DNA of 64,000 nt from assembly GCA_963731925.1 (NCBI GenBank), contig CAVSXK010000016.1, positions 65,730-129,729 of the forward strand, in the 5' to 3' direction. Under the pieces are notes generated by a model, which saw only the letters and a program-made list of their open reading frames with translations, did no database searches and was not told the origin of the DNA. Source of the stretch: an uncultured Actinomycetes bacterium. GTDB taxonomy: Bacteria > Actinomycetota > UBA4738 > HRBIN12. The stretch's first letter is position 1. Every line of letters begins with the position of its first letter. A program made the position numbers and the translations under genes. Below are positions 2,116-37,743 of this stretch, piece by piece.

Positions 2116-2781
2116 ATGGCGGCGGAGCGCTGGGCAACGTTCGACTGCTACGGCACCCTGATCGATTGGATGGGCGGGATCCGCGACACCCTGTCCGACC
2201 TGTGGCCCGAGCACGACGCCGAGCTGTTGCTCTCCGCCTACCACGAGATCGAGCCGGAGGTGCAGCGCGGCCGCGCGGTGCCGTACCGGCAGGTGCTGGC
2301 CGAGTCGCTCGAGCGCGTGGCCCATCGCGAGGGGCTCGACCTCGCGGACGAGGAACGGCAGGCGCTCGGCGACTCGTTGCCCACCTGGCCGCCGTTCGAC
2401 GAGGTCCCGTCGTCGCTCGCCGAACTGCGTTCGCTCGGCTGGCGGATCGGGATCTTGTCGAACACGGATCCGGAGTTCCTGGACGCCTCGCTGGAGGCGA
2501 TCGGCGTTCCCGTGGACCTTCGGATCACGGCCGCCGAAGCGGGTTCGTACAAGCCGGCGCACGGGCACTGGGAGCGCTTCTTCGAACAGACCGGGGCCGA
2601 GCGCGAGCGCCACGCGCACGTCGCGGCGTCGCTGTTCCACGACATCGCCCCGGCGAACGAGCTCGGGCTCCGCGCGGTGTGGATCAACCGGTTGCGCGAG
2701 ACCTCGGACCTGCCACGCGCCGCGGAGCTCGGCGACCTGTCGAAGCTGCCCGAGACGCTCGACGACCTCGTGGGCGCCTGA
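2116..2781 (+). CDS. HAD-superfamily hydrolase (haloacid dehalogenase-like)
   Basis: The DxYGTL-like motif FDCYGTLID sits at the N-terminus and an SNTD motif follows. ATG at 2116 lies just after the ftsH stop; the longer track ORF overlaps ftsH out of frame. Confidence 0.75.
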
Positions 2782-27220: not shown

Positions 27221-30200
27221 ATGTGCTGCGTGAGCACCACGGACGAGGTGACCGCGGGCGCTCTTCCCGCCCCGCTGCTCGAGCTCATCGACGCCAAGGT
27301 GCCGAACGAGCGGGCGGAGCTCGTCAAGGCGTTCGCATCGGCCTTCACGAAGAGGCTGACGCCGCACGACGTCTCCGAGCGGTCGCCGGAGGAGCTCTTC
27401 GGCGTGATCTCGGACGCCTTCGAGCTCGCAGACGCTCGGCGGGCGGACGAGTTCGCGGTGCGGGTGTTCGAACCGAGTCCGCCAGAGAACGGCGACGAAG
27501 CGCCGGGCACGGTGGTCGAGATCAGCGCCCCGGATTCCCCGTTCCTGTACGACTCGGTGGCCGAGGAGCTCGATGCCTGGGGGCTGGACGCCCGTCGCGT
27601 GATCCACCCCGTGATCGGCGTCGAGCGAGGTTCCGATGGCCGGATCGTCCGGGTCCTGCACGTCCGACAGACCGAGGACCGAGAGTCCCTGATGCACTTC
27701 GAGCTCGAGCAGCGGCTGACCGAGCAGGAGCGGACCGAGCTCGAGCGGGCGATCCGAGGCATCCTCGGCGACGTCCGCCTGGCCGTGCGGGACTTCGAGC
27801 CGATGAAGGAAGCGGCACGGGGCATGATCGACATCGCGAGCGGCGGGTCGGCCCTGTACCCGGCGGACGAGGTCGCCGAGACCGTCGCGTTCCTCGAGTG
27901 GCTGCTCGATCTGAACTTCATCTTCCTTGGCTACCGCGAGTACGAGCTCGTCGATCTCCCCGAAGGGCGGGCCCTCGCCGCGGTCCCCGGATCGGGCCTC
28001 GGCATCTTGTCGAAGGTCGATTGGTCGGCGTACGAACAGCCGGTGCCGCTCGAGACGATCGAGCCGAACCTGCGCGCCCGCATCGAGGGCGGCGACCTTC
28101 TCATCTACTCGAAGACGAACCGGCCCTCGACGGTGCATCGGCGCGCCCGGATGGACTACATCGGCGTGCGCAGGGTCTCGCCCGACGGACGAATCGTCGG
28201 CGAGGCGCGGATGGTGGGCCTGTTCACCTCCAAGGCGTACGCGGAGCCCGCGAGCAAGACGCCGCTGCTGCACCGCAAGCTCGAGCAGATCGTGGACGCC
28301 GAGGACCTGTTCGAGGGGTCGCACGACTACAAGGCGGTGGTGTCGATCTTCGAGAGCTTCCCGAAGGACGAGCTGTTCGCCGCTCCCACCGAGGAGCTCC
28401 GACAGCAGGTCATGGGGCTGCTGCAGCTGCAGGAGTCCCGGCACACCCGTCTGTTCGTTCGACGAGACCTCTACGGACGGAGCGTGTCGCTGTTGGTCGC
28501 GATCCCGCGCGACCGCTTCAACGCGGAGGTACGCCAGCGGCTGCAGGAGCTGTTCCTCGAGCGGTTCAACGGCACGACGATCGACGTCCACGTCTCGCTC
28601 ACCGAGAGCGACCTGGCGCAGCTGCACTTCACCGTGCACGTCGGTCAGGGCCAGATCCCGGACGTGTCCTTCGACGAGCTCCAGCGCGACGTCGTCGAGA
28701 TCGCCCGCACGTGGGACGACCAGCTGCTGGACCGGTTGGTCGAGGAGCACGGGCAGGCACGCGCGCGAGAGCTGTTCGAACGCTGGGCGGACCGCCTCCC
28801 CGACTACTACAAGGCGTCGACCGACGTCGCCATCGCCGGCCTCGACATCCTCCGGTTCGACGAGCTCGAGCGTGGCGAGGAAGCCTTCCTGATCGGTCTG
28901 GCGAACGAGACCGAGGAGGGGCAGTCGCTCACGCACGTCCGGCTCTACAAGGTCGATGGCAAGGTCGAGCTCTCGGACTTCGTGCCGACGCTCGAGTCGC
29001 TCGGTCTTCGCGTGATCGAGGAGTGGCCGACCACCCTCTCCGGCGAGGAGGGCGACGAGCGCTTCCTCCACGACTTCGGCGTGCTGGGAGCCGATCACCG
29101 GCCGATCGACGTCGACGCCACCGGTGACCGGGTCGCCGAGTGCATCGCGGCGGTGTGGCGAGGCGAGTGCGAGTCCGATTCGCTGAACCGCCTCGTCGTC
29201 ACCGCGGGGGTCGACTGGAGACAGGTTCAGATCCTGCGCGCCTACCGCAAGTATCACCACCGGGTGAACTCGAGCTTCCCGGTCGAGTACAAGAACGATG
29301 CCTTCGCGGCGCACCCGGCCATCGCCGCCCAACTCGTGGAGCTGTTCGAGATGCGGTTCGATCCGTCCCGGCCGAGGGATCCACAGGCGGTCGAGGCGCT
29401 CGGGGAGAAGATCCGCTCGGATCTGGACGCCGTGCGATCGCTCGAGCTCGACCGGATCCTCCGCAACGCCTTGGGCGTCGTCGACGCGACGGTGCGCACC
29501 AACGCCTACGTCCCGGGGCGACGCGCGATCGCGTTCAAGTTCCGCTCCGCGGCCGTCCCCGAGATGCCCAAGCCGACGCCCCTGTTCGAGATCTTCGTGT
29601 ACTCGCCCGAGATGGAGGCGATCCACCTGCGGGGCGGAAGGGTGGCTCGCGGCGGGATCCGCTGGTCCGAGCGGCGGCAGGACTACCGAACGGAGATCCT
29701 CGGTCTCCTGAAGGCGCAGATGGTGAAGAACGCCGTCATCGTGCCGACCGGCGCCAAGGGTGGCTTCGTCCTCAAGCACGAGGTCACCGATCCACGGGCC
29801 TCGAAGGACGAGGGCACGCGACAGTACGTGACCTTCGTGCGAAGCATGCTCGAGGTGACGGACAACCTGGTCGACGGCACGGTCGTGCATCCCGATCACG
29901 TCGTGGTGCACGACGAGGACGACCCCTACCTCGTCGTCGCCGCCGACAAGGGCACCGCCACCTTCTCGGACACCGCGAACGCGATCTCCGCCGAGTACGG
30001 GTTCTGGCTAGGTGACGCGTTCGCCTCCGGTGGCTCCACCGGGTACGACCACAAGGAGCTCGGCATCACGGCGCGAGGCGCGTGGGAGTCGGTCAAGCGA
30101 CACTTCCGCGAGATCGGGACCGACGTCATGAACGAGCCGTTCACCGTCGTGGGCATCGGCGACATGTCGGGCGACGTGTTCGGTAACGGGATGCTCTACT

Positions 30201-32029
30201 CGGAGCAGATCTGCCTCGTCGCGGCGTTCGACCACCGGCACGTGTTCGTCGACCCCTCGCCGCATCCTGCCGTGGGATACGCCGAACGGCGACGGCTGTT
30301 CGACCGTCCCGGGTCGAGCTGGGACGACTACGACCGTTCGAAGATCTCGGAGGGCGGTGGCGTGTGGCCGCGCACCGACAAGTCGATCGAGATCTCACCG
30401 CAGACGCGACTCGCCCTGGGGATCGAGGCGGACGAGCTCACGCCCGGCGAGCTGATCTCCGCGATCCTCAGCGCTCCGGTGGACCTGCTCTACAACGGCG
30501 GCATCGGGACGTACGTCAAGGCATCGAGCGAATCCGACGCCGACGTCGGCGACCGCGTGAACGACGACCTCCGTGTCGACGGCCGCGACCTCCGATGCCG
30601 GGTCGTGGCCGAGGGCGGCAACCTGGGCTTCACACAGCGCGGCAGGATCGAGTTCGCGCTCGGCGGCGGCAGGATCAACACCGACTTCATCGACAACTCG
30701 GCCGGCGTGGACACGTCGGACCACGAGGTGAACCTCAAGATCCTCTTCGGGCTCGCGGTCGCACGCGGTGCGCTCACGATGGACGATCGGAACGCCCTGC
30801 TCGCCGAGGTCGAGGAGGACGTGGTCCGTCACGTGCTGTACGACAACTTCCTCCAGGCCCAGATCCTCTCGCAGGAATCGGTCGTGTCGCCGAACCACAT
30901 GGAGGCGTACGAGGACCTGATGGTCGGCCTCGAGACGCAGGATGTCCTCGACCGCGAGCTCGAGGCGCTCCCCAACGCCGAGGACATGGCCGAGCGGCGC
31001 CGGTCGACCCGGGGGATGACGCGACCCGAGCTCGCCGTGCTCCTCGCCTACGCGAAGCAGAGCCTGACGAACGCGTTGCTCGCGTCCTCGCTCCCGGACT
31101 CGGCCTACCTCGAGCGTGATCTGCGCGCCTATTTCCCTCCGCAGGTCGTGGAGCGGTTCGGCCCGATGCTCAACGATCACCCCCTGCGCCGCGAGCTGAT
31201 CGCGATGCTGGTGGCGAACGACGTCGTGAACTCGCAGGGCATCACGTTCGTGTCTCGCGTCGTGACCGAGACGGGCGCGGAAGCGGCCGACGTGACGCGC
31301 GCGTACCGGATCGCGCGCGACGTGACCGGTGCCGTCGAACGCTGGGAGGAGATCGAGGCGCTCGTCGGGTCCCTGGAGCCCGCGCTGCTCGACGAGCTGA
31401 TGGCGGGCGTCGACCGGCTGGTGGAGATCACGGCCCGTTGGTACCTGCAGCACCTCCCGGGGCAGCTCGGCCGGGCGATCGAAGCGCACGCGGGTCCGTT
31501 CGAGGCCTTCGCCGGGTCCGTGGCGGCCCTCGCGCCGGACGGATGGCGGCAGGAGCGCGAACGTGCGGCCTGGGCGCTCATGGACCGTGGTGTGCCCGAG
31601 GACGTCGCTCGAGCACACGTGGCGCTGACGTTCCTCGTCCACGGTCCGAACGTGGCCGAGGTCGCAGAGGCCACGGGCCGCTCGATCGAGGACGTGGCGC
31701 GCGCGTTCTTCCTCGTCGGCGAGTCCGTCTACGTCGACTGGCTCGAGGCTCGTCTCTCCGCGGTCTCGACGACGACCCGGTGGCACCGCTGGGCGCTCCA
31801 GGCCCTGGAGGACGACCTGCGGCTGCTCCGCCGGCAGGTGGTCGAGCACGTGCTCGCTCAGGGTGGCGGCCAGCTTCCCGTCGAGGACGCGTTGGCGTCC
31901 TACCTCGAGGAGCGGAGCGAGGTCATGACGCGGCTCGGGAGGTTCATGCGTGGGATCGCGCTCGAAGAGGCGAGCGACCTGGCCGCCATGACGGTCGCGG
32001 TGCGCCAGGTCCGGAGCCTCTCGGCCTGA
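27221..32029 (+). CDS. gdh: NAD-specific glutamate dehydrogenase, large (180-kDa) class
   Basis: A 1602-aa protein with the Bac_GDH catalytic core (...GGSTGYDHKELGITARGAWESV...GNGMLYS...). Confidence 0.9.
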   Translation: MCCVSTTDEVTAGALPAPLLELIDAKVPNERAELVKAFASAFTKRLTPHDVSERSPEELFGVISDAFELADARRADEFAVRVFEPSPPENGDEAPGTVVEISAPDSPFLYDSVAEELDAWGLDARRVIHPVIGVERGSDGRIVRVLHVRQTEDRESLMHFELEQRLTEQERTELERAIRGILGDVRLAVRDFEPMKEAARGMIDIASGGSALYPADEVAETVAFLEWLLDLNFIFLGYREYELVDLPEGRALAAVPGSGLGILSKVDWSAYEQPVPLETIEPNLRARIEGGDLLIYSKTNRPSTVHRRARMDYIGVRRVSPDGRIVGEARMVGLFTSKAYAEPASKTPLLHRKLEQIVDAEDLFEGSHDYKAVVSIFESFPKDELFAAPTEELRQQVMGLLQLQESRHTRLFVRRDLYGRSVSLLVAIPRDRFNAEVRQRLQELFLERFNGTTIDVHVSLTESDLAQLHFTVHVGQGQIPDVSFDELQRDVVEIARTWDDQLLDRLVEEHGQARARELFERWADRLPDYYKASTDVAIAGLDILRFDELERGEEAFLIGLANETEEGQSLTHVRLYKVDGKVELSDFVPTLESLGLRVIEEWPTTLSGEEGDERFLHDFGVLGADHRPIDVDATGDRVAECIAAVWRGECESDSLNRLVVTAGVDWRQVQILRAYRKYHHRVNSSFPVEYKNDAFAAHPAIAAQLVELFEMRFDPSRPRDPQAVEALGEKIRSDLDAVRSLELDRILRNALGVVDATVRTNAYVPGRRAIAFKFRSAAVPEMPKPTPLFEIFVYSPEMEAIHLRGGRVARGGIRWSERRQDYRTEILGLLKAQMVKNAVIVPTGAKGGFVLKHEVTDPRASKDEGTRQYVTFVRSMLEVTDNLVDGTVVHPDHVVVHDEDDPYLVVAADKGTATFSDTANAISAEYGFWLGDAFASGGSTGYDHKELGITARGAWESVKRHFREIGTDVMNEPFTVVGIGDMSGDVFGNGMLYSEQICLVAAFDHRHVFVDPSPHPAVGYAERRRLFDRPGSSWDDYDRSKISEGGGVWPRTDKSIEISPQTRLALGIEADELTPGELISAILSAPVDLLYNGGIGTYVKASSESDADVGDRVNDDLRVDGRDLRCRVVAEGGNLGFTQRGRIEFALGGGRINTDFIDNSAGVDTSDHEVNLKILFGLAVARGALTMDDRNALLAEVEEDVVRHVLYDNFLQAQILSQESVVSPNHMEAYEDLMVGLETQDVLDRELEALPNAEDMAERRRSTRGMTRPELAVLLAYAKQSLTNALLASSLPDSAYLERDLRAYFPPQVVERFGPMLNDHPLRRELIAMLVANDVVNSQGITFVSRVVTETGAEAADVTRAYRIARDVTGAVERWEEIEALVGSLEPALLDELMAGVDRLVEITARWYLQHLPGQLGRAIEAHAGPFEAFAGSVAALAPDGWRQERERAAWALMDRGVPEDVARAHVALTFLVHGPNVAEVAEATGRSIEDVARAFFLVGESVYVDWLEARLSAVSTTTRWHRWALQALEDDLRLLRRQVVEHVLAQGGGQLPVEDALASYLEERSEVMTRLGRFMRGIALEEASDLAAMTVAVRQVRSLSA

Positions 32030-32041
32030 GCGTCCTGCCGG

Positions 32042-32359
32042 GTGCTTGAAGCGTCGGTGAGGCCCGCTACCCTCGGCGTCGTGGGAGCCCAACCGCGCGA
32101 CCTCGCGCCCGAGCTGGACGAACGCACCCGCGCGGTCCTGGATTTCGAGCGCTCATGGTGGTTGGACGGTGGTCCCAAGGAACGGAGGATCCGTGAGCGT
32201 TTCGGGATCTCGGCCACGAGGTATCAGCAACTCCTGATGCGGGCGATCGACCTCCCCGAGGCGCTCAGGTACGACCCGATGCTGGTGCGCAGGCTGCGCC
32301 GGCTTCGGGAATCGCGCAGGCGCAAGCGCCTCGCGCGGCGGCTTGGGCTTCCTTCCTAG
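32042..32359 (+). CDS. DUF3263-family protein
   Basis: The ILDFERSWW...KERRIRERFGIS..RYQQL...DPMLVRRLRRLRE pattern is present. Confidence 0.7.
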   Translation: MLEASVRPATLGVVGAQPRDLAPELDERTRAVLDFERSWWLDGGPKERRIRERFGISATRYQQLLMRAIDLPEALRYDPMLVRRLRRLRESRRRKRLARRLGLPS

Positions 32360-32370
32360 CCCGGGGTAGG

Positions 32371-32967
32371 ATGGGCTCGCACCAGCCGCCGACCAACAGG
32401 AGCTTCTACCTCTCCTTGGCCGCCAGCACGCTCCGGTTCGCGATCATCGTCGCCCTCGTCATCGGGGGGATCGTCGTGATCGACCAGGCCTTCCCGGCGT
32501 TGTCGTCGGACGACGGCGGCGGTGGCGGCACGACGGCACCGATCACCGGCGGCACGGTCGGCGGCGGCACCGGCGAGACCGGAGAGACCGGAGCAACCGG
32601 CGCGACCGCAACCGGCCCGACGGGTGCCGAGGCGGAGCCGCCGACGACCGAAGGCGTTCGGATCGCGGTCTTCAACGGCACCGAGGCGAGCGGTCTTGCC
32701 GGAGAGACCCAGCTCCGGCTCGAGGAGAGGTACGGCTACATCGCGACGCAGGTCCCGGCAGACGCCCCCGCCGCGTACCCGGTCACGACGATCTACTTCA
32801 ACGCACCGAAGGACAGGGTTCAAGCCGAGTACCTGGCGAGCGACTTCTTCAAGAAGCTCGACGATGTCGAGGTCGTCAGGCTCGACCCCGGTACCGGCGA
32901 CATCGATCCATCGACCCAGCTCGCGATCTTCCTCGGAAACGACTACGCCGCCCTCAAGTCCGCCTGA
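32371..32967 (+). CDS. LytR_C-domain membrane protein
   Basis: An N-terminal TM, a Gly/Thr-rich linker, and a C-terminal LytR_C-like domain (RIAVFNGT...). Confidence 0.65.
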   Translation: MGSHQPPTNRSFYLSLAASTLRFAIIVALVIGGIVVIDQAFPALSSDDGGGGGTTAPITGGTVGGGTGETGETGATGATATGPTGAEAEPPTTEGVRIAVFNGTEASGLAGETQLRLEERYGYIATQVPADAPAAYPVTTIYFNAPKDRVQAEYLASDFFKKLDDVEVVRLDPGTGDIDPSTQLAIFLGNDYAALKSA

Positions 32968-33688
32968 CCTCCCTGCGCTCCGCGAACGGGCAGACGTCGC
33001 GGGCATCGCGCTCGACTTCGACGGAACGTTGTCCGAGATCGTCGCCCGGCCCGACCTCGCGCGTCCCGTCGAGGGAGCACGCGACGCGATCGCCGGGCTC
33101 ACCCAGCGTTACCGGACGGTAGCGATCGTCACCGGACGCCGGTCCGAAGAGGTGGCGGCGCTCCTCGACCTGCCGCACGTCATGTACGTCGGGCTGTACG
33201 GGTTCGAGGAAGAGACCCCCGAGCTGCTGACCGCGGTCGTGCCGCTCGTCGAGACCGCAGCCGCCCGAGTACCGGACGCGTGGATCGAGGACAAGGGGAG
33301 CTCGATCGCGGTCCACTACCGGCAGGCGCCCGACACCGACGCCGCGAGAGCCGCGCTGATGGTTGCCCTGCAGCCGGTCGCGAGCGAGTCCGGCCTCGAG
33401 GTGATCGAGGGCAAGATGGTGATCGAGCTCGTCCCGCGTGGCCGGCCGATGAAGGGGGAAGCGCTCGAGCGCATCGTGGGCGAGCACGAGCTCCAGGCCG
33501 TCCTCTATGCGGGGGACGATCACGCCGACCTCGACGCGTTCGAGGCGCTCGACCGGCTGGCGGCGTCGGGTGTGCAGGTCGTCCGTGTCGCCGTCCGGGG
33601 CCGCGAGACGCCGCGGTCGCTGGTCGACGCGGCCGACGTCGTCGTCGAGGGGCCGGCGGGACTCGTCGAGCTCCTGCGAACGCTCTAG
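32864..33688 (+). CDS. otsB: trehalose-6-phosphate phosphatase
   Basis: The HAD-IIB motif DFDGTL and the GDDHADLDAF block are present. The only in-frame canonical start is ATG 32864, which gives a 104-nt overlap with the upstream gene. The start is uncertain. Confidence 0.8.
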   Translation: MSRSSGSTPVPATSIHRPSSRSSSETTTPPSSPPDLPALRERADVAGIALDFDGTLSEIVARPDLARPVEGARDAIAGLTQRYRTVAIVTGRRSEEVAALLDLPHVMYVGLYGFEEETPELLTAVVPLVETAAARVPDAWIEDKGSSIAVHYRQAPDTDAARAALMVALQPVASESGLEVIEGKMVIELVPRGRPMKGEALERIVGEHELQAVLYAGDDHADLDAFEALDRLAASGVQVVRVAVRGRETPRSLVDAADVVVEGPAGLVELLRTL

Positions 33689-35148
33689 CGCCGCCTCCGC
33701 TTCGCGCGCTCGAGGTCCTCGAGCTGACCCCGGACCCACCGTGCCGGAGGGTTCGCCAGCACGAGCCGAGACAGTCCGCGCGAGCGGCGAGTGCGTTCGT
33801 CGACCGGCATCGAGATCGCTTGCTCCAACGCCTCCGCCATCTCGTCGACGTCGAACGGGTTGACGGGCAGGGCGTACCGGCCCAGCCGCCCATAGGCCCC
33901 CGCGTTCCGCGACAGCACCAGGACCCCCCGCCTGCGGTTCAGCAGGGGACCCTCCATCGCGACCAGGTTCATCCCGTCGATGACGGGGTTGACGAACAGG
34001 ACGTCGTACAGTCCGTACGCCGCGATCGCGCCGATGTAGTCGTCCTTCAACCTGAGCTCGATCGGCTGCCAGCCCTCCCGACCGAGGGCGTCGTTGACCC
34101 GGCGGGCCTCCGTCAGGCACGCCTCGGTGTACTCGCGGTACTCGGGAAGCTCCATGCGCGAAGGCGAGAGCAGGGCGAGGAAGCGGACGCGCCCCAGCCA
34201 GGCCGGGTTCCGGCGGAGGAAGAGCTCGTAGGCCTGGAACCCCCGAACGACGTTCTTGGTGAGCTCGAGCCGGTCGACGCGCAGGATCAGGCGGTTGTTG
34301 TCGCGCCACCGGTTGAGCGCGTGCCGGAGGTTGCGCACGCGAGGCGTGGCCGCCTCTTCGCGCATCGCCCGGCCGTCCACCGAGATCGGATGGATGCGGA
34401 CCGTCACCTCTCGTCCATCGGTCACGATGCGCGAGCGAGCGAGGTCGACTCGGGCCCCCGGCAGCTGGCGAGCGGAGAGCAGGAAGTTCTCGGCCCACGC
34501 GGGCGAGTGGAAACCCAGGACGTCGGCTCCGAGCATCCCGTGAAGGACCTGGTCGTGGATCCGCACGGGGAGCATCCTGAAGTACGTCGGACCGGCGATG
34601 GAGGTGTGCGAGAAATGCGCGATGAGCGCGTCGGGTATCAGCTCGCGCAGCATCCGTGGCACGAGCGAAAGGTGGTAGTCCTGGATCAGGAACGCGGTGT
34701 CCCGCCCGAGCGCGTCGCCTTCCTCGGCGAGGGCCTGCGCGAACCGACGATTGACGTCGACGTACTGGTCCCACGCCTCCTCGACGTCCGGACCGAACGA
34801 CGGCGACGTCACCGTGTCCCACAGGTAGTGGTGGGCGAACCACAGCATGCCGTTCGAGATGCGGTTGTAGTAGCCGTCGTAGATATCCGGCGGGATGTCG
34901 AGGTACCGCAGGCGGTAGGAGACGTCACCTTCCGCGTGATCGATGCGGCCGCCCTTCGATTCGGCGACCATCTCGCGGTCGCCCTCGGACATCGCGGCGG
35001 CGACCCAGACGCCTTCGGCTTCGATGAGCGCGCTCGAGAGCGCGGTCACCAGCCCACCGGACCCGCGACGCGCCTGGAGCTCCCCTTTTCGGGCGCGCTC
35101 GAACGTCAGCGGTCCGCGGTTCGATGCGACGATGAGCGGTGGGCTCAT
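33685..35148 (-). CDS. otsA: alpha,alpha-trehalose-phosphate synthase (GT20)
   Basis: A GT20 core carrying VASNRGP and GFHSPAW. The start at ATG 35148 overlaps the upstream stop (ATGA). Confidence 0.9.
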   Translation of the reverse strand: MSPPLIVASNRGPLTFERARKGELQARRGSGGLVTALSSALIEAEGVWVAAAMSEGDREMVAESKGGRIDHAEGDVSYRLRYLDIPPDIYDGYYNRISNGMLWFAHHYLWDTVTSPSFGPDVEEAWDQYVDVNRRFAQALAEEGDALGRDTAFLIQDYHLSLVPRMLRELIPDALIAHFSHTSIAGPTYFRMLPVRIHDQVLHGMLGADVLGFHSPAWAENFLLSARQLPGARVDLARSRIVTDGREVTVRIHPISVDGRAMREEAATPRVRNLRHALNRWRDNNRLILRVDRLELTKNVVRGFQAYELFLRRNPAWLGRVRFLALLSPSRMELPEYREYTEACLTEARRVNDALGREGWQPIELRLKDDYIGAIAAYGLYDVLFVNPVIDGMNLVAMEGPLLNRRRGVLVLSRNAGAYGRLGRYALPVNPFDVDEMAEALEQAISMPVDERTRRSRGLSRLVLANPPARWVRGQLEDLERAKRRRR

Positions 35149-36389
35149 GCCGTGAGCCGCGAGATCAGACGGATGGTGTCCTCGATCTCGCGGATACACA
35201 GGAACCGCTCGCGGACGCGTCCGCGTCCCAGCTCGCCCATCTCCTTTCGCTTCTCCGGATGACGCAGGAGCTCGGTGACGCGCTCGGCGCAGCGGCCGAT
35301 GCCGTCCACGAGGTAGCCGGTCACCCCCTCCTCGATCTGGAGCCGGATGCCCCCCACGTCACCGCCGACGACGGGCTTCCACTTCCACATCCCCTCGGCC
35401 ACGACCAGGCCGAAGCCCTCCCTGAGCGACTTCTGGATGATCACGTCGGAGGCACGCTGGAACGCGTTCACGGCGCTGTCGCCGACGCCGCTCAGGTTGG
35501 TGAGCAGATGGATGTCGGGGTCACCGGCCGCGTGCTCGGTCGTGAGGTCGAGGTAGCGGATGCCCTCGGGGTCGTCGTGCGCGAGCGATCCCACCAGGGC
35601 GAGCTGGACGTCGGGCACCTCACGGCGGACCAGCCTGAATGCATCGATGACGCCGGGCGGGTCCTTCCACGGGTCGAAACGCGAGACCTGGGTGATGAGG
35701 GGCCGGTCGGGATCCACGCCGAAGGGCATGAGGACGCCCCGCCACGTCGACTCCATCATCGGAGCGTTCTTCGGGCTGAGCGGGTCGATCGAGGGCGGGA
35801 TGAACGCCCGGACGGGGCCCTGGACGCCGGGTTGGACGTACTCCTCGGCGGTGAAGATCGCCGCGTCGTAGCGGTTCACGATCGGTTCGAAGAAGTCCCA
35901 GACGGGCCGGTACGGCGCGGACAGGTCGATGTGGCAGCGCCAGATCCATCGGCCCTTGCGGCGAGCGCTCTCCTCGAGGACCTGCAGCATCGCGGCCGGC
36001 TGCGGGTCGTGCACCAGGATCACGTCGAAGTCGACGGGAAGCTCGGCCGCGTTGGCGTGCATCCGTTCCCAGTACGTCTCGCGCATCTCGTCGTCGAGCT
36101 GGGTCTCGGCGCCCTGGAGCGCGTTGTGTACGGCCTTCGTGACGTTGAAGAAGCGGTCGGATCCTTCGATCACGACCCACGACGTTTCGACGCCCAGGTC
36201 GTTCATGAGCGGCACCTGCGTCTGCAGCAGCTCGGACACTCCGCCGCCGTAGGCGGTGCTGCTCACGTTGAGCACGCGGAGCCCCGGTAGCTGTCGGGCG
36301 GCCTCGCGGAGACGGTCGACAGCCTCCTCGCCCGCCGCTTCCGCGTACTCGGACACGTGCTTGGGCTGGATGGGGACGATCGGGAGCAC
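35145..36389 (-). CDS. treT: GT4 glycosyltransferase, trehalose glycosyltransferring synthase TreT-like
   Basis: The N-terminal block RVLNVSSTAYGGGVSELL...FFNVTKAVHNALQG recalls TreT proteins. The GT-B C-terminal domain carries FGLVVAEGMWK. The assignment is from memory of the family. Confidence 0.6.
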   Translation of the reverse strand: MLPIVPIQPKHVSEYAEAAGEEAVDRLREAARQLPGLRVLNVSSTAYGGGVSELLQTQVPLMNDLGVETSWVVIEGSDRFFNVTKAVHNALQGAETQLDDEMRETYWERMHANAAELPVDFDVILVHDPQPAAMLQVLEESARRKGRWIWRCHIDLSAPYRPVWDFFEPIVNRYDAAIFTAEEYVQPGVQGPVRAFIPPSIDPLSPKNAPMMESTWRGVLMPFGVDPDRPLITQVSRFDPWKDPPGVIDAFRLVRREVPDVQLALVGSLAHDDPEGIRYLDLTTEHAAGDPDIHLLTNLSGVGDSAVNAFQRASDVIIQKSLREGFGLVVAEGMWKWKPVVGGDVGGIRLQIEEGVTGYLVDGIGRCAERVTELLRHPEKRKEMGELGRGRVRERFLCIREIEDTIRLISRLTA

Positions 36390-36430
36390 GGGTCGAGTCT
36401 ACTGGGGACGGACGCCGCGGCCGGACGAGC

Positions 36431-36847
36431 TCAAACGCCCAGTTGCGCGAGCTCCTTCTCCCGCCGGAGGGAGCGCTCGGTCGTCGACATCTCCCGGGCT
36501 CGTTCCGCGATCCCGACGAGATCGACGGGCGAGAACGGCTTGGTCATGTACTCGGCGCATCCCGCCCGCCAGCCCGCCTTGCGATCCTCGAGCTGGGTCT
36601 TCGCCGTGAGGAGGATCACGGGCACGTCGCGGGTCTGGGCCCCGTTCGCGAGCGTCCCGAGGACGGAGATCCCGTCCATCTTCGGCAGCATCACGTCGAG
36701 CACGACGACGTCCGGTCGTTCGCGAAGGGCGAGCTCGAGCCCCGCCTCGCCGTTGTTGGCCTCGATCACCTCGTGCCCGGCGAGCTGGAGGTTCACCCGG
36801 CAGAGCATCAGGACGTCCGGCTCGTCGTCGATCACCAGTACCCGCAT
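36431..36847 (-). CDS. single-domain response regulator (CheY-like)
   Basis: Receiver-domain motifs DDEPD, D53 and TAK. It is the first gene of the RR-treT-otsA unit on the minus strand. Confidence 0.85.
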   Translation of the reverse strand: MRVLVIDDEPDVLMLCRVNLQLAGHEVIEANNGEAGLELALRERPDVVVLDVMLPKMDGISVLGTLANGAQTRDVPVILLTAKTQLEDRKAGWRAGCAEYMTKPFSPVDLVGIAERAREMSTTERSLRREKELAQLGV

Positions 36848-36978: not shown

Positions 36979-37007
36979 TTGACACCCCCATACACCCTTC
37001 CTACATT
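36979..37007 (+). promoter_or_regulatory. sigma-70-like promoter TTGACA-N17-TACATT upstream of the rrf2 gene
   Basis: Consensus-like -35 and -10 hexamers with a 17-nt spacer, ~15 nt before the ATG at 37024. Confidence 0.4.
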
Positions 37008-37023: not shown

Positions 37024-37494
37024 ATGCTGAAGATCTCTCAGAAGCTCGAATACGCCATGCGGGCGATGATCGAGCTGTCCATGCGCCGGGAAACGGGGGG
37101 GCTCGTGCCCGCCCGGGAGATCGCCCAGGCACAACAGATCCCGGTGCGGTTCCTCGAGCAGCAGCTCGGTGCCCTCCACAAGGCCGGGCTCGTCGAGAGC
37201 TTCCGCGGGGCCGGTGGGGGGTGTCGTCTGGCCAAGGAGCCTTCCGAGATCAGCGTGGCCCAGATCGCGGACGCGATCGAGGGGCAGCTCTACCCGATGT
37301 TCTGCCTGGAGCCTACCGACCACACGTGCTTCGCGGATTCGCGATGCGGACTGCAGGGCTTCTGGGGGGAGGTCGCCCTGGCGATCGACGGTGTCTTCCA
37401 GCGGACCACCGTCGCCGATCTCGCCGAGCGCCACCAGCGCACGGCCGGCCCGACGGTGTTCACGTCCGAGCAGCTCCTGTCAGGGCTGAACTAG
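37024..37494 (+). CDS. Rrf2-family transcriptional regulator (IscR/NsrR-like, three-Cys cluster ligands)
   Basis: The N-terminal MLKISQKLEYAMRAM wHTH and a C-X6-C-X5-C motif (CLEPTDHTCFADSRC) are present. Confidence 0.85.
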   Translation: MLKISQKLEYAMRAMIELSMRRETGGLVPAREIAQAQQIPVRFLEQQLGALHKAGLVESFRGAGGGCRLAKEPSEISVAQIADAIEGQLYPMFCLEPTDHTCFADSRCGLQGFWGEVALAIDGVFQRTTVADLAERHQRTAGPTVFTSEQLLSGLN

Positions 37495-37593: not shown

Positions 37594-37743
37594 TCAGGCG
37601 TCGCTCTTGCCCAGGATGCGCATCACCTTGGTGCCGCACTTCGGGCAGATGCCCTGAGCGGCCTTCCGACCGTTCTTGAGTTCGACGACCGTGCCCTCGA
37701 ACTGGACCTTCTCTCGGTCCTTCACGCAGTACCCCTCGTACAT
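37594..37743 (-). CDS. 49-aa zinc-ribbon protein (DUF5679-like)
   Basis: The sequence [49 protein letters not shown] contains a C...C/CxxC ribbon. A GGAGGG RBS sits 11 nt upstream. Confidence 0.6.

Follow-up and report, generated by a model that had tools for sequence, protein, structure and literature searches.

The closest described systems to the genes considered here belong to two trehalose routes. In the actinobacterial OtsA/OtsB pair (trehalose-6-phosphate synthase and phosphatase, TPS/TPP), a GT20 synthase works together with a HAD-type trehalose-6-phosphate (T6P) phosphatase that carries a DxDGT motif. The trehalose glycosyltransferring synthase TreT is known from Thermococcus/Pyrococcus and Thermoproteus, and reportedly also from Rubrobacter xylanophilus, in work of Nobre et al. 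from 2008. A third kind of relevant system concerns translation. In stop-start coupling the downstream start lies at a short distance from the upstream stop (NTGA, TGATG, +1 to +3 nucleotides (nt); PMC12548453), and post-termination ribosomes can restart tens of nt up- or downstream of a stop (PMC12548453). Here we describe a trehalose locus in a 64,000-nt stretch of DNA, which we call the window, from an uncultured Actinomycetes bacterium (contig CAVSXK010000016.1, positions 65,730 to 129,729). Both trehalose routes are predicted to be encoded in it, and its phosphatase gene otsB has no canonical start codon after the stop of the preceding gene, which encodes a LytR_C-domain protein. Our main result is that this start-less otsB is maintained by selection across a whole clade.

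Open reading frames were listed from the sequence, their proteins were classed by Pfam and NCBIfam profiles, and the gene junctions were read directly from the DNA, which has a G+C content of 66-72% in this region. A preliminary description of the locus had given the order DUF3263, LytR_C and otsB on the plus strand and a convergent regulator, treT and otsA on the minus strand, and its coordinates hold (Table 1). The otsB product scores 116.3 bits with TIGR00685, against a cutoff of 68.05, and its nucleophile motif (DxDGT) reads DFDGTL at 33014-33031. Between the LytR_C stop, a TGA at 32965-32967, and the DFDGTL codons there is no ATG, GTG or TTG in the otsB frame. The closest in-frame canonical start is ATG 32864, further upstream, which overlaps the LytR_C gene by 104 nt; both points had been made before and are exact on direct reading. 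Conservation of otsB begins with a GAC codon (32966-32968) that overlaps the LytR_C TGA in the +1 frame, and 16 codons in all (D-L-x-A-L-R-x-R-A-x-x-x-G-I-x-L) lead up to DFDGTL.

For comparison, an OtsA scan with one genome per species gave 79 loci, of which about 40 share the neighbourhood of the window (52-94% OtsA identity); these belong to metagenome-assembled genomes of uncultured Actinomycetota from soil or groundwater. The missing start recurs in about 30 independently assembled species-level genomes, and can thus be neither a sequencing accident nor a chance feature of one contig. Of the 35 junctions analysed, 32 have 47 nt between the stop and DFDG, and the other three are longer by 6, 27 and 36 nt. 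We took a census of the canonical starts in the open otsB frame of each species, with L017 and L041 re-read by eye. Nine species have no canonical start at all, and in five the only one lies 2-3 codons before DxDG. Another nine have canonical starts only at least 68 codons upstream, and five have one at -33 to -38 codons. In-frame stops 14 codons (L011) and 11 codons (L041) upstream of the junction exclude long overlaps and far-upstream starts in those two species. The contigs with an identical TreT that carry public gene calls (L001-L004 and L006) have otsB starting at TTG 33029, the Leu of DFDGTL, which gives a protein of 219 residues. This call must be wrong because it removes the catalytic aspartates, and it is a systematic mis-annotation for the clade. 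A second junction type with the same problem is seen in L048 (~2320-2460, minus strand; 50% OtsB identity). Its only canonical start is a TTG three codons before DFDG, and an ACG lies 5 nt after AGGGG, between the LytR_C stop and a conserved P-L-E-R-L-R.

Homologues with a canonical start indicate where the start used to be. In L086 and L087, two sister-lineage loci found through OtsB homologues, the junction reads TCC/GGC TGA c GTG CTC. A single base separates the LytR_C stop from the GTG, and DxDG follows the stop at 50 nt. The junction of the window's clade, TGA C|CTC, is the sister junction minus the GTG codon. All 8 inspected homologues with canonical starts (241-244 residues, ~60-66% identity) begin with M/V-[LI]-x-x-[LF]-R, which aligns with D-L-P-A-L-R of the window. 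Their starts therefore correspond to 32966-32968, at the LytR_C stop, and not to a position 104 nt upstream.

Several patterns indicate that the start-less otsB is a functional coding sequence from the LytR_C stop onwards. The codon-position entropy of the 16 junction codons (0.67/0.63/1.09) resembles that of the otsB body (0.65/0.69/1.15), and the three-base periodicity of substitutions sets in at the codon that overlaps the stop. At the junction Leu, Arg, Ala and Gly codons the amino acid is invariant and synonymous changes are present. Within the start-less clade the pairwise ratio of non-synonymous to synonymous substitution rates (dN/dS) of otsB is 0.12-0.53, with a median of ~0.2. The corresponding ranges are 0.06-0.17 for otsA, 0.05-0.29 for treT, 0.11-0.49 for LytR_C and 0.10-0.39 for the regulator. 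This pattern of substitutions indicates that otsB, with the 16 codons before DFDG, is kept by purifying selection in ~28 species whose divergence postdates the loss of the start. Given the nine species with no start, the coding-type junction codons and the dN/dS of ~0.2, we infer that otsB is translated by some non-canonical route.

The OtsB protein tree is too short to place the loss of the start, and we used the OtsA tree instead. On this tree the canonical-start loci L086 and L087 branch outside the start-less clade. L039 is nested within the clade and has a 36-nt insertion that carries a GTG and an ATG. Five related loci have lost otsB completely (L014, L031, L033, L034 and L036, with otsA-LytR_C gaps of 35-115 nt), which corresponds to 3-4 independent events. 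The simplest history that these data suggest is one loss of the start codon, a long retention of the gene, one regain and 3-4 complete losses of otsB. We also considered whether the new start of L039 arose by duplication of the LytR_C tail, and rejected this, as the local alignment score was reached by 87 of 500 shuffles.

How could such a gene be translated? We propose that the ancestor had a tightly coupled junction, LytR_C-TGA-c-GTG-otsB, and that the window's clade lost the GTG codon yet retained otsB. Translation of otsB would then begin, at a low level, on near-cognate codons that lie within the final ~27 nt of LytR_C, a non-canonical initiation probably aided by ribosomes that terminate at the adjoining LytR_C stop. 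In the window the candidate codons would be ACG 32939 and ACG 32945, and elsewhere ATT, CTG, AGG, AAG or ATC; the chance ATG 32864 may contribute in this strain. Comparison of the junctions makes near-cognate initiation fed by termination the most likely mechanism in our judgement, although we hold it at slightly less than an even chance. With one exception, every species has a near-cognate codon no more than 9 codons 5' of the junction. There are several observations that weigh against this proposal. No near-cognate codon is universal, and the exceptional species, L035, has none from -20 to +12 codons; L043 has no ATC or GTG adjoining DFDG. By reading, no Shine-Dalgarno (SD)-like sequence is seen before the ACG codons, and the same is true 5' of the LytR_C stop, of ATG 32864 and of the ATC discussed below. 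Initiation at ACG is very inefficient in bacteria where it has been measured. The ACG codons follow automatically from the LytR_C motif N-D-Y-A, so their conservation proves nothing, and the deletion of otsB in five related loci means that its expression could be marginal.

The next best explanation is that otsB starts at ATG 32864, as the preliminary description had proposed under the term deep overlap, and that OtsB here has a 34-residue N-terminal extension rich in Ser, Thr, Pro and Arg. The frame is indeed open from this ATG through to DFDG, the codon is kept in the near-identical contigs L001-L006, and gene callers pick similar upstream starts in the relatives P0001, P0004 and P0028. We nevertheless regard this start as unlikely. 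The ATG is confined to the species of the window: it is missing in the closest species-level relatives L012 and L043 (77-79% OtsB identity), in L007-L017 and in others, and the canonical starts of homologues point to the LytR_C stop. It derives from the GAT-G of the LytR_C motif L-D-D-V, and similar ATGs in L030, L045 and L046 arose independently, each from a different GAT in L-D-[DG]-V. The four ATGs near -34 codons occur at a rate that fits the 13.6% background usage of GAT, which does not support selection for an ATG. The extension would be a +1 reading of the LytR_C domain and changes radically between species, the ATG has no SD-like sequence before it, and it leaves the nine species without a canonical start unexplained.

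Two further explanations have, in our view, a low probability. In the first, recoding depends on the LytR_C UGA: through a +1 shift, or a resumption of translation without initiator tRNA, ribosomes would go on to read GAC-CTC and produce OtsB as a LytR_C-OtsB fusion or with Asp as its first residue. OtsB would then have been made without any start codon in ~28 species since the 3-nt deletion of the GTG, which we consider improbable. If it were true, the supply of phosphatase would depend entirely on how much LytR_C is translated and how efficiently its translation terminates. What makes this idea attractive is that a stop overlapped in +1 by the first conserved otsB codon is the sole feature common to every start-less species, where no start codon is universal. 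Moreover, in 18 of 27 species the stop reads UGAC, a context in which E. coli terminates weakly, and all spacing differences are multiples of three. On the other hand, 11 different last-sense codons precede the stop and none of them can re-pair in +1, no SD-like stimulator of a frameshift lies upstream, and there is no sign of a conserved RNA structure (RNAalifold gives 0 pairs from -33 to +87, and single-sequence folds differ between species). When 5.8 billion proteins were searched with an artificial fusion as query, the top 120 hits contained no natural LytR_C-OtsB fusion in frame; all of them match the OtsB half only. The cell wall is where the LytR_C domains of VirR-type proteins act (PMC11832169). 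Together with the transmembrane helix, which predicts that LytR_C lies outside, this means that a fusion would put a cytoplasmic phosphatase outside the cell. Finally, L039, a relative, has an ATG of its own four residues ahead of the D-L motif and makes OtsB from there.

The second explanation, to which we give a similarly small chance, is a start at ATC 33005 just before the catalytic motif, or at GTG/TTG in some relatives. OtsB would then have a minimal N-terminus like that of the Thermoplasma TPP, and DLPALRERADVAG peptides would not be expected in it. Such a protein could fold, since the solved TPP-related protein 1u02 from Thermoplasma begins ~3 residues before the aligned position. An ATC is found at the equivalent position in 22 of 27 species, with a GTG or TTG one or two codons later in 8. 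This distribution has other possible reasons: the first beta-strand already requires Ile or Val at the ATC position, and at the next position GTG accounts for 6 of 13 Val codons, which is not an obvious enrichment. L043 has no ATC, GTG or TTG near this site. A further objection is that the 13 codons 5' of ATC 33005 evolve under a coding-type constraint no different from that elsewhere in the gene, which is unexplained if they are not translated. The least probable explanation, that otsB is unexpressed and decaying and that T6P is dephosphorylated elsewhere or trehalose supplied by TreT, has in its favour the clean deletions and a dN/dS about twice that of otsA, but it is very hard to reconcile with dN/dS values well under 1 across divergences to dS ~0.8 and with ~28 species that have intact catalytic motifs and neither frameshifts nor internal stops.

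Two other ideas were tried and set aside. Reassignment of UGA does not apply, as other genes here stop at TGA and in-frame readthrough does not yield OtsB. Avoidance of ATG at the N-D-Y codons, with 0 AAT/TAT in 45 against a background of 4.5-5.6%, was not significant (P ~0.09), and the species are not independent.

The enzymes themselves are of known kinds, in an arrangement specific to the clade. The preliminary description had called the treT product TreT-like and had proposed an alignment with characterised TreTs to separate it from generic GT4 transferases. This alignment favours TreT. Over its full length the protein matches the solved and characterised TreT of Pyrococcus horikoshii (2x6q) with E=2.7e-121 (residues 12-410 against 16-412) and that of Thermoproteus uzoniensis (6zj4) with E=2.5e-117; the top generic GT4 match reaches E=3.9e-11 and covers the C-terminal half only. 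The TreT-specific N-terminal domain PF21269 (TreT_GT1) scores 182.4 bits against a cutoff of 27, and the C-terminal GT domain PF00534 scores 80.4 bits. The glutamate of REGFGL is kept (slrEGFGL, compared with sirAGFGL in 2xa2, a second P. horikoshii TreT sequence that has Ala there). With 436 bits the protein misses the equivalog cutoff of 775 bits of the NCBIfam model NF041139. This shortfall is expected, because the model was built from Thermococcales and here scores a bacterial orthologue. Judged by homology, the protein is thus a genuine TreT homologue and not a generic GT4. The otsA product likewise stays under the equivalog cutoff of TIGR02400 (299 against 565 bits), and the otsA ATG is kept among close relatives. 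TreT (NDP-glucose + glucose <-> trehalose) and OtsA/OtsB (via T6P) are therefore predicted to provide two trehalose routes at one locus, in agreement with the preliminary description.

The 41-nt gap between the regulator and treT (36390-36430) and the ATGA in which the treT stop and the otsA start overlap (35145-35148) are both exactly as described before. The view that the regulator heads this unit is not supported, since treT has a -10-like box of its own and a probable leaderless start within the gap. In all 30+ loci (L007-L049), the sister loci L086 and L087 included, the treT start is preceded at 6-8 nt by a block (g)TAGACTCG, or by TACACT/TAGAGT, and the rest of the spacer varies between loci. 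The treT gene, which starts with GTG or ATG in 33 of 34 loci, has no SD sequence; the regulator has its own, a GGAG 6 nt before the ATG. The block fits the actinobacterial -10 consensus TANNNT and, judged by what is established for mycobacterial promoters and leaderless mRNAs, its distance suits a transcript whose 5' end is the start codon; a TANNNT 6-8 nt before an ATG or GTG is found in all loci. TAGACT is thus probably a -10 box that drives a leaderless treT-otsA mRNA from the start codon. Seven loci without treT (L027, L028, L029, L033, L034, L035 and L046) still have the box before otsA, together with the GTG and ~5 initial treT codons (GTG CTC CC...), and this retention after treT deletion speaks for the element as the signal from which the unit is expressed. 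The box also persists where the regulator is deleted. Most likely, then, treT-otsA has its own promoter and the receiver gene lies beside the unit instead of opening it, although no terminator is predicted between regulator and treT and read-through from the regulator is possible. The distribution of the regulator fits poorly with a regulator-first unit as well: it is absent next to treT in L019 and L044, present without treT in L035, L036 and L039, and both genes are missing in L027-L029, L033, L034 and L046.

The regulator has a receiver domain followed by only a 25-residue tail, with no output domain. Its residues D7, D8, D51, T81 and K103 are conserved in 31 orthologues, as is a basic C-terminal helix with the tail M-S-x-x-E-R-x-x-R-R. 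Its closest solved relatives are OmpR/PhoB-type receiver domains, and the gene is under purifying selection. In L014 (~4010, plus strand) the place of the conserved start codon is taken by a CTG, with a GGAGG 5 nt before it; this is a possible natural CTG start. The preliminary description had suggested phospho-relay control of trehalose synthesis, with the orphan GAF/PAS kinases of the window as candidate partners. One such kinase, of the HisKA type, is a conserved neighbour: it shares 58% identity with the kinase of L086 and L087, whose gene adjoins DUF3263 directly, and all related loci with sufficient flank have it, even those that lack the regulator. Beside it there is no DNA-binding regulator, and its other neighbour is an aminotransferase. 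The kinase is a candidate partner of the receiver, and a pairing of the two is possible. It also persists in at least 5 genomes without a receiver, which tempers its case, and control of trehalose synthesis by a phospho-relay is a guess from synteny only. The Rrf2 regulator is no weaker a candidate for control of transcription: it is the only regulator that adjoins the unit divergently in every locus, whether the receiver gene, treT or otsA faces it. The TTG start called mechanically for this gene is overlapped by a TTGACA-17-TACATT site (36979-37007), and its real start is therefore probably ATG 37024. The TTGACA (GGGGTGTCAAC on the other strand) recurs in L019, L027, L028, L044 and L046.

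The wider region is a conserved trehalose module of a clade of uncultured soil Actinomycetota. In the orientation of the window the shared order is kinase(-), [GDH(+)], DUF3263(+), LytR_C(+), otsB(+), otsA(-), [treT(-)], [RR(-)], Rrf2(+), DUF5679(-), acs(+), where GDH is glutamate dehydrogenase, RR the response regulator, acs the acetyl-CoA synthetase gene and brackets mark variable genes. L086 and L087 have the same module minus GDH. A protein identical to TreT is found on 17 soil-metagenome contigs. Only remnants of treT are left in L031 and L040, and the repeated loss of both TreT and the receiver within the clade suggests that they are accessory. Since L033, L034 and L036 have neither otsB nor treT, another T6P phosphatase must exist there if OtsA is used. 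The DUF3263 gene is syntenic across all related loci; its product scores 101.8 bits with NCBIfam NapA, under the cutoff of 160. The LytR_C protein has an N-terminal transmembrane helix, a Gly/Thr-rich linker and the LytR_C domain, an architecture like that of VirR/Cei, and its 3' tail differs in length among relatives always by whole codons. GDH is absent from the gap between kinase and DUF3263 in L041, L086 and L087, and for this reason looks like an insertion into an older divergent kinase-DUF3263 pair. The convergent otsB and otsA overlap by 4 nt at their stop codons (33685-33688). No terminator-like structure is predicted between them, and each transcript would run antisense into the other gene.

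Table 1. Features of the trehalose locus and its flanks, in window coordinates; minus-strand genes are given from start to stop.
Feature	Position	Strand	Basis
Sensor histidine kinase, orphan, cytoplasmic (GAF, PAS_3, HisKA, HATPase_c)	27149-24945	-	Pfam
NAD-glutamate dehydrogenase (GDH), 1602 residues, between kinase and DUF3263	27221-32029	+	
DUF3263 / NapA-like small protein, opening gene of the plus-strand unit	32042-32359	+	PF11662, E=1.2e-28
LytR_C solo-domain membrane protein	32371-32967	+	PF13399, E=3.2e-9, whole profile covered
LytR_C stop / otsB junction	32965-33013	+	Conserved codons, spacing
otsB, T6P phosphatase, conserved coding part of 240 codons + stop	32966-33688	+	PF02358, E=2.3e-33, 115.7 bits
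otsA, GT20 trehalose-6-phosphate synthase, 487 residues	35148-33685	-	PF00982, E=1.2e-99, 334.7 bits, profile 3-472 of 473
treT, trehalose glycosyltransferring synthase, 414 residues, GTG start at 36389	36389-35145	-	PF21269; matches to PDB 2x6q and 6zj4
TAGACT box, 6 nt 5' of the treT GTG	36396-36401	-	Conservation across loci
Stand-alone receiver response regulator, 138 residues	36847-36431	-	PF00072, E=3.4e-25
Rrf2-family regulator, three-cysteine motif FCLEPTDHTCFADSRC	37024-37494	+	PF02082, E=2e-34
Small DUF5679 protein (49 residues per calls on related contigs)	37594-37743	-	Between Rrf2 and acetyl-CoA synthetase in all loci

A trehalose locus with two routes adds little in itself, and the value of this one lies in otsB. 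The clade represents a clean natural experiment: the start codon disappeared from a tightly coupled junction, and selection has nevertheless maintained the enzyme gene behind it throughout the clade. How OtsB is made would inform us about the strictness of start codons in high-GC, leaderless-rich Actinomycetota, and about how gene finders should treat such cases. Our literature searches found no description of coupling to a gene without ATG, GTG or TTG, nor an earlier account of the otsB/DUF3263/LytR arrangement or of non-canonical starts in reinitiation. The TAGACT element with its putative leaderless start, together with Rrf2, the receiver and the kinase, offers handles on the regulation of trehalose in abundant uncultured soil bacteria.

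When the locus is set beside the known systems, each of them is resembled in part. The TreT of the window shares with the enzymes of Thermococcus/Pyrococcus and Thermoproteus the full-length homology, the specific N-terminal domain and the motifs FFNVTK, VHDPQPAA, WRCHIDLS, SRFDPWK and REGFGL. Unlike archaeal TreT, it is bacterial and lies in an operon-like unit directly 5' of otsA, with the ATGA overlap. OtsA and OtsB have the same GT20 and DxDGT-bearing HAD-type composition as other actinobacterial pairs, but here otsB has no canonical start and the two genes are convergent with overlapping stops. The stand-alone receiver, with its complete phospho-acceptor pocket, is like CheY, Spo0F and DivK-type proteins, and differs from them in its conserved basic C-terminal helix and in adjoining sugar-synthesis genes. 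The DUF3263-LytR_C gene pair and the LytR_C architecture recall mycobacterial VirR/Cei and its NapA-like DUF3263 partner; Rv0430 and Rv0431 are neighbours. In contrast to the mycobacterial pair, that of the window is followed by otsB, with which it is translationally entangled, and its host is a non-mycolate member of the Actinomycetota. The junction shares with the +1 frameshift of release factor 2 (prfB, CUU-UGA-C) a UGA, mostly followed by C, that is overlapped in +1 by a GAC continuing a conserved protein. It lacks the slippery P-site codon, the SD stimulator and a conserved structure, and a fusion would be topologically implausible. There is also a likeness to stop-start coupling at short distance. 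The TGA-c-GTG of the sister loci is a typical example, and the window keeps its stop position and frame although the restart codon is gone. The start-less yet selected otsB is an unusual variant of stop-start coupling.

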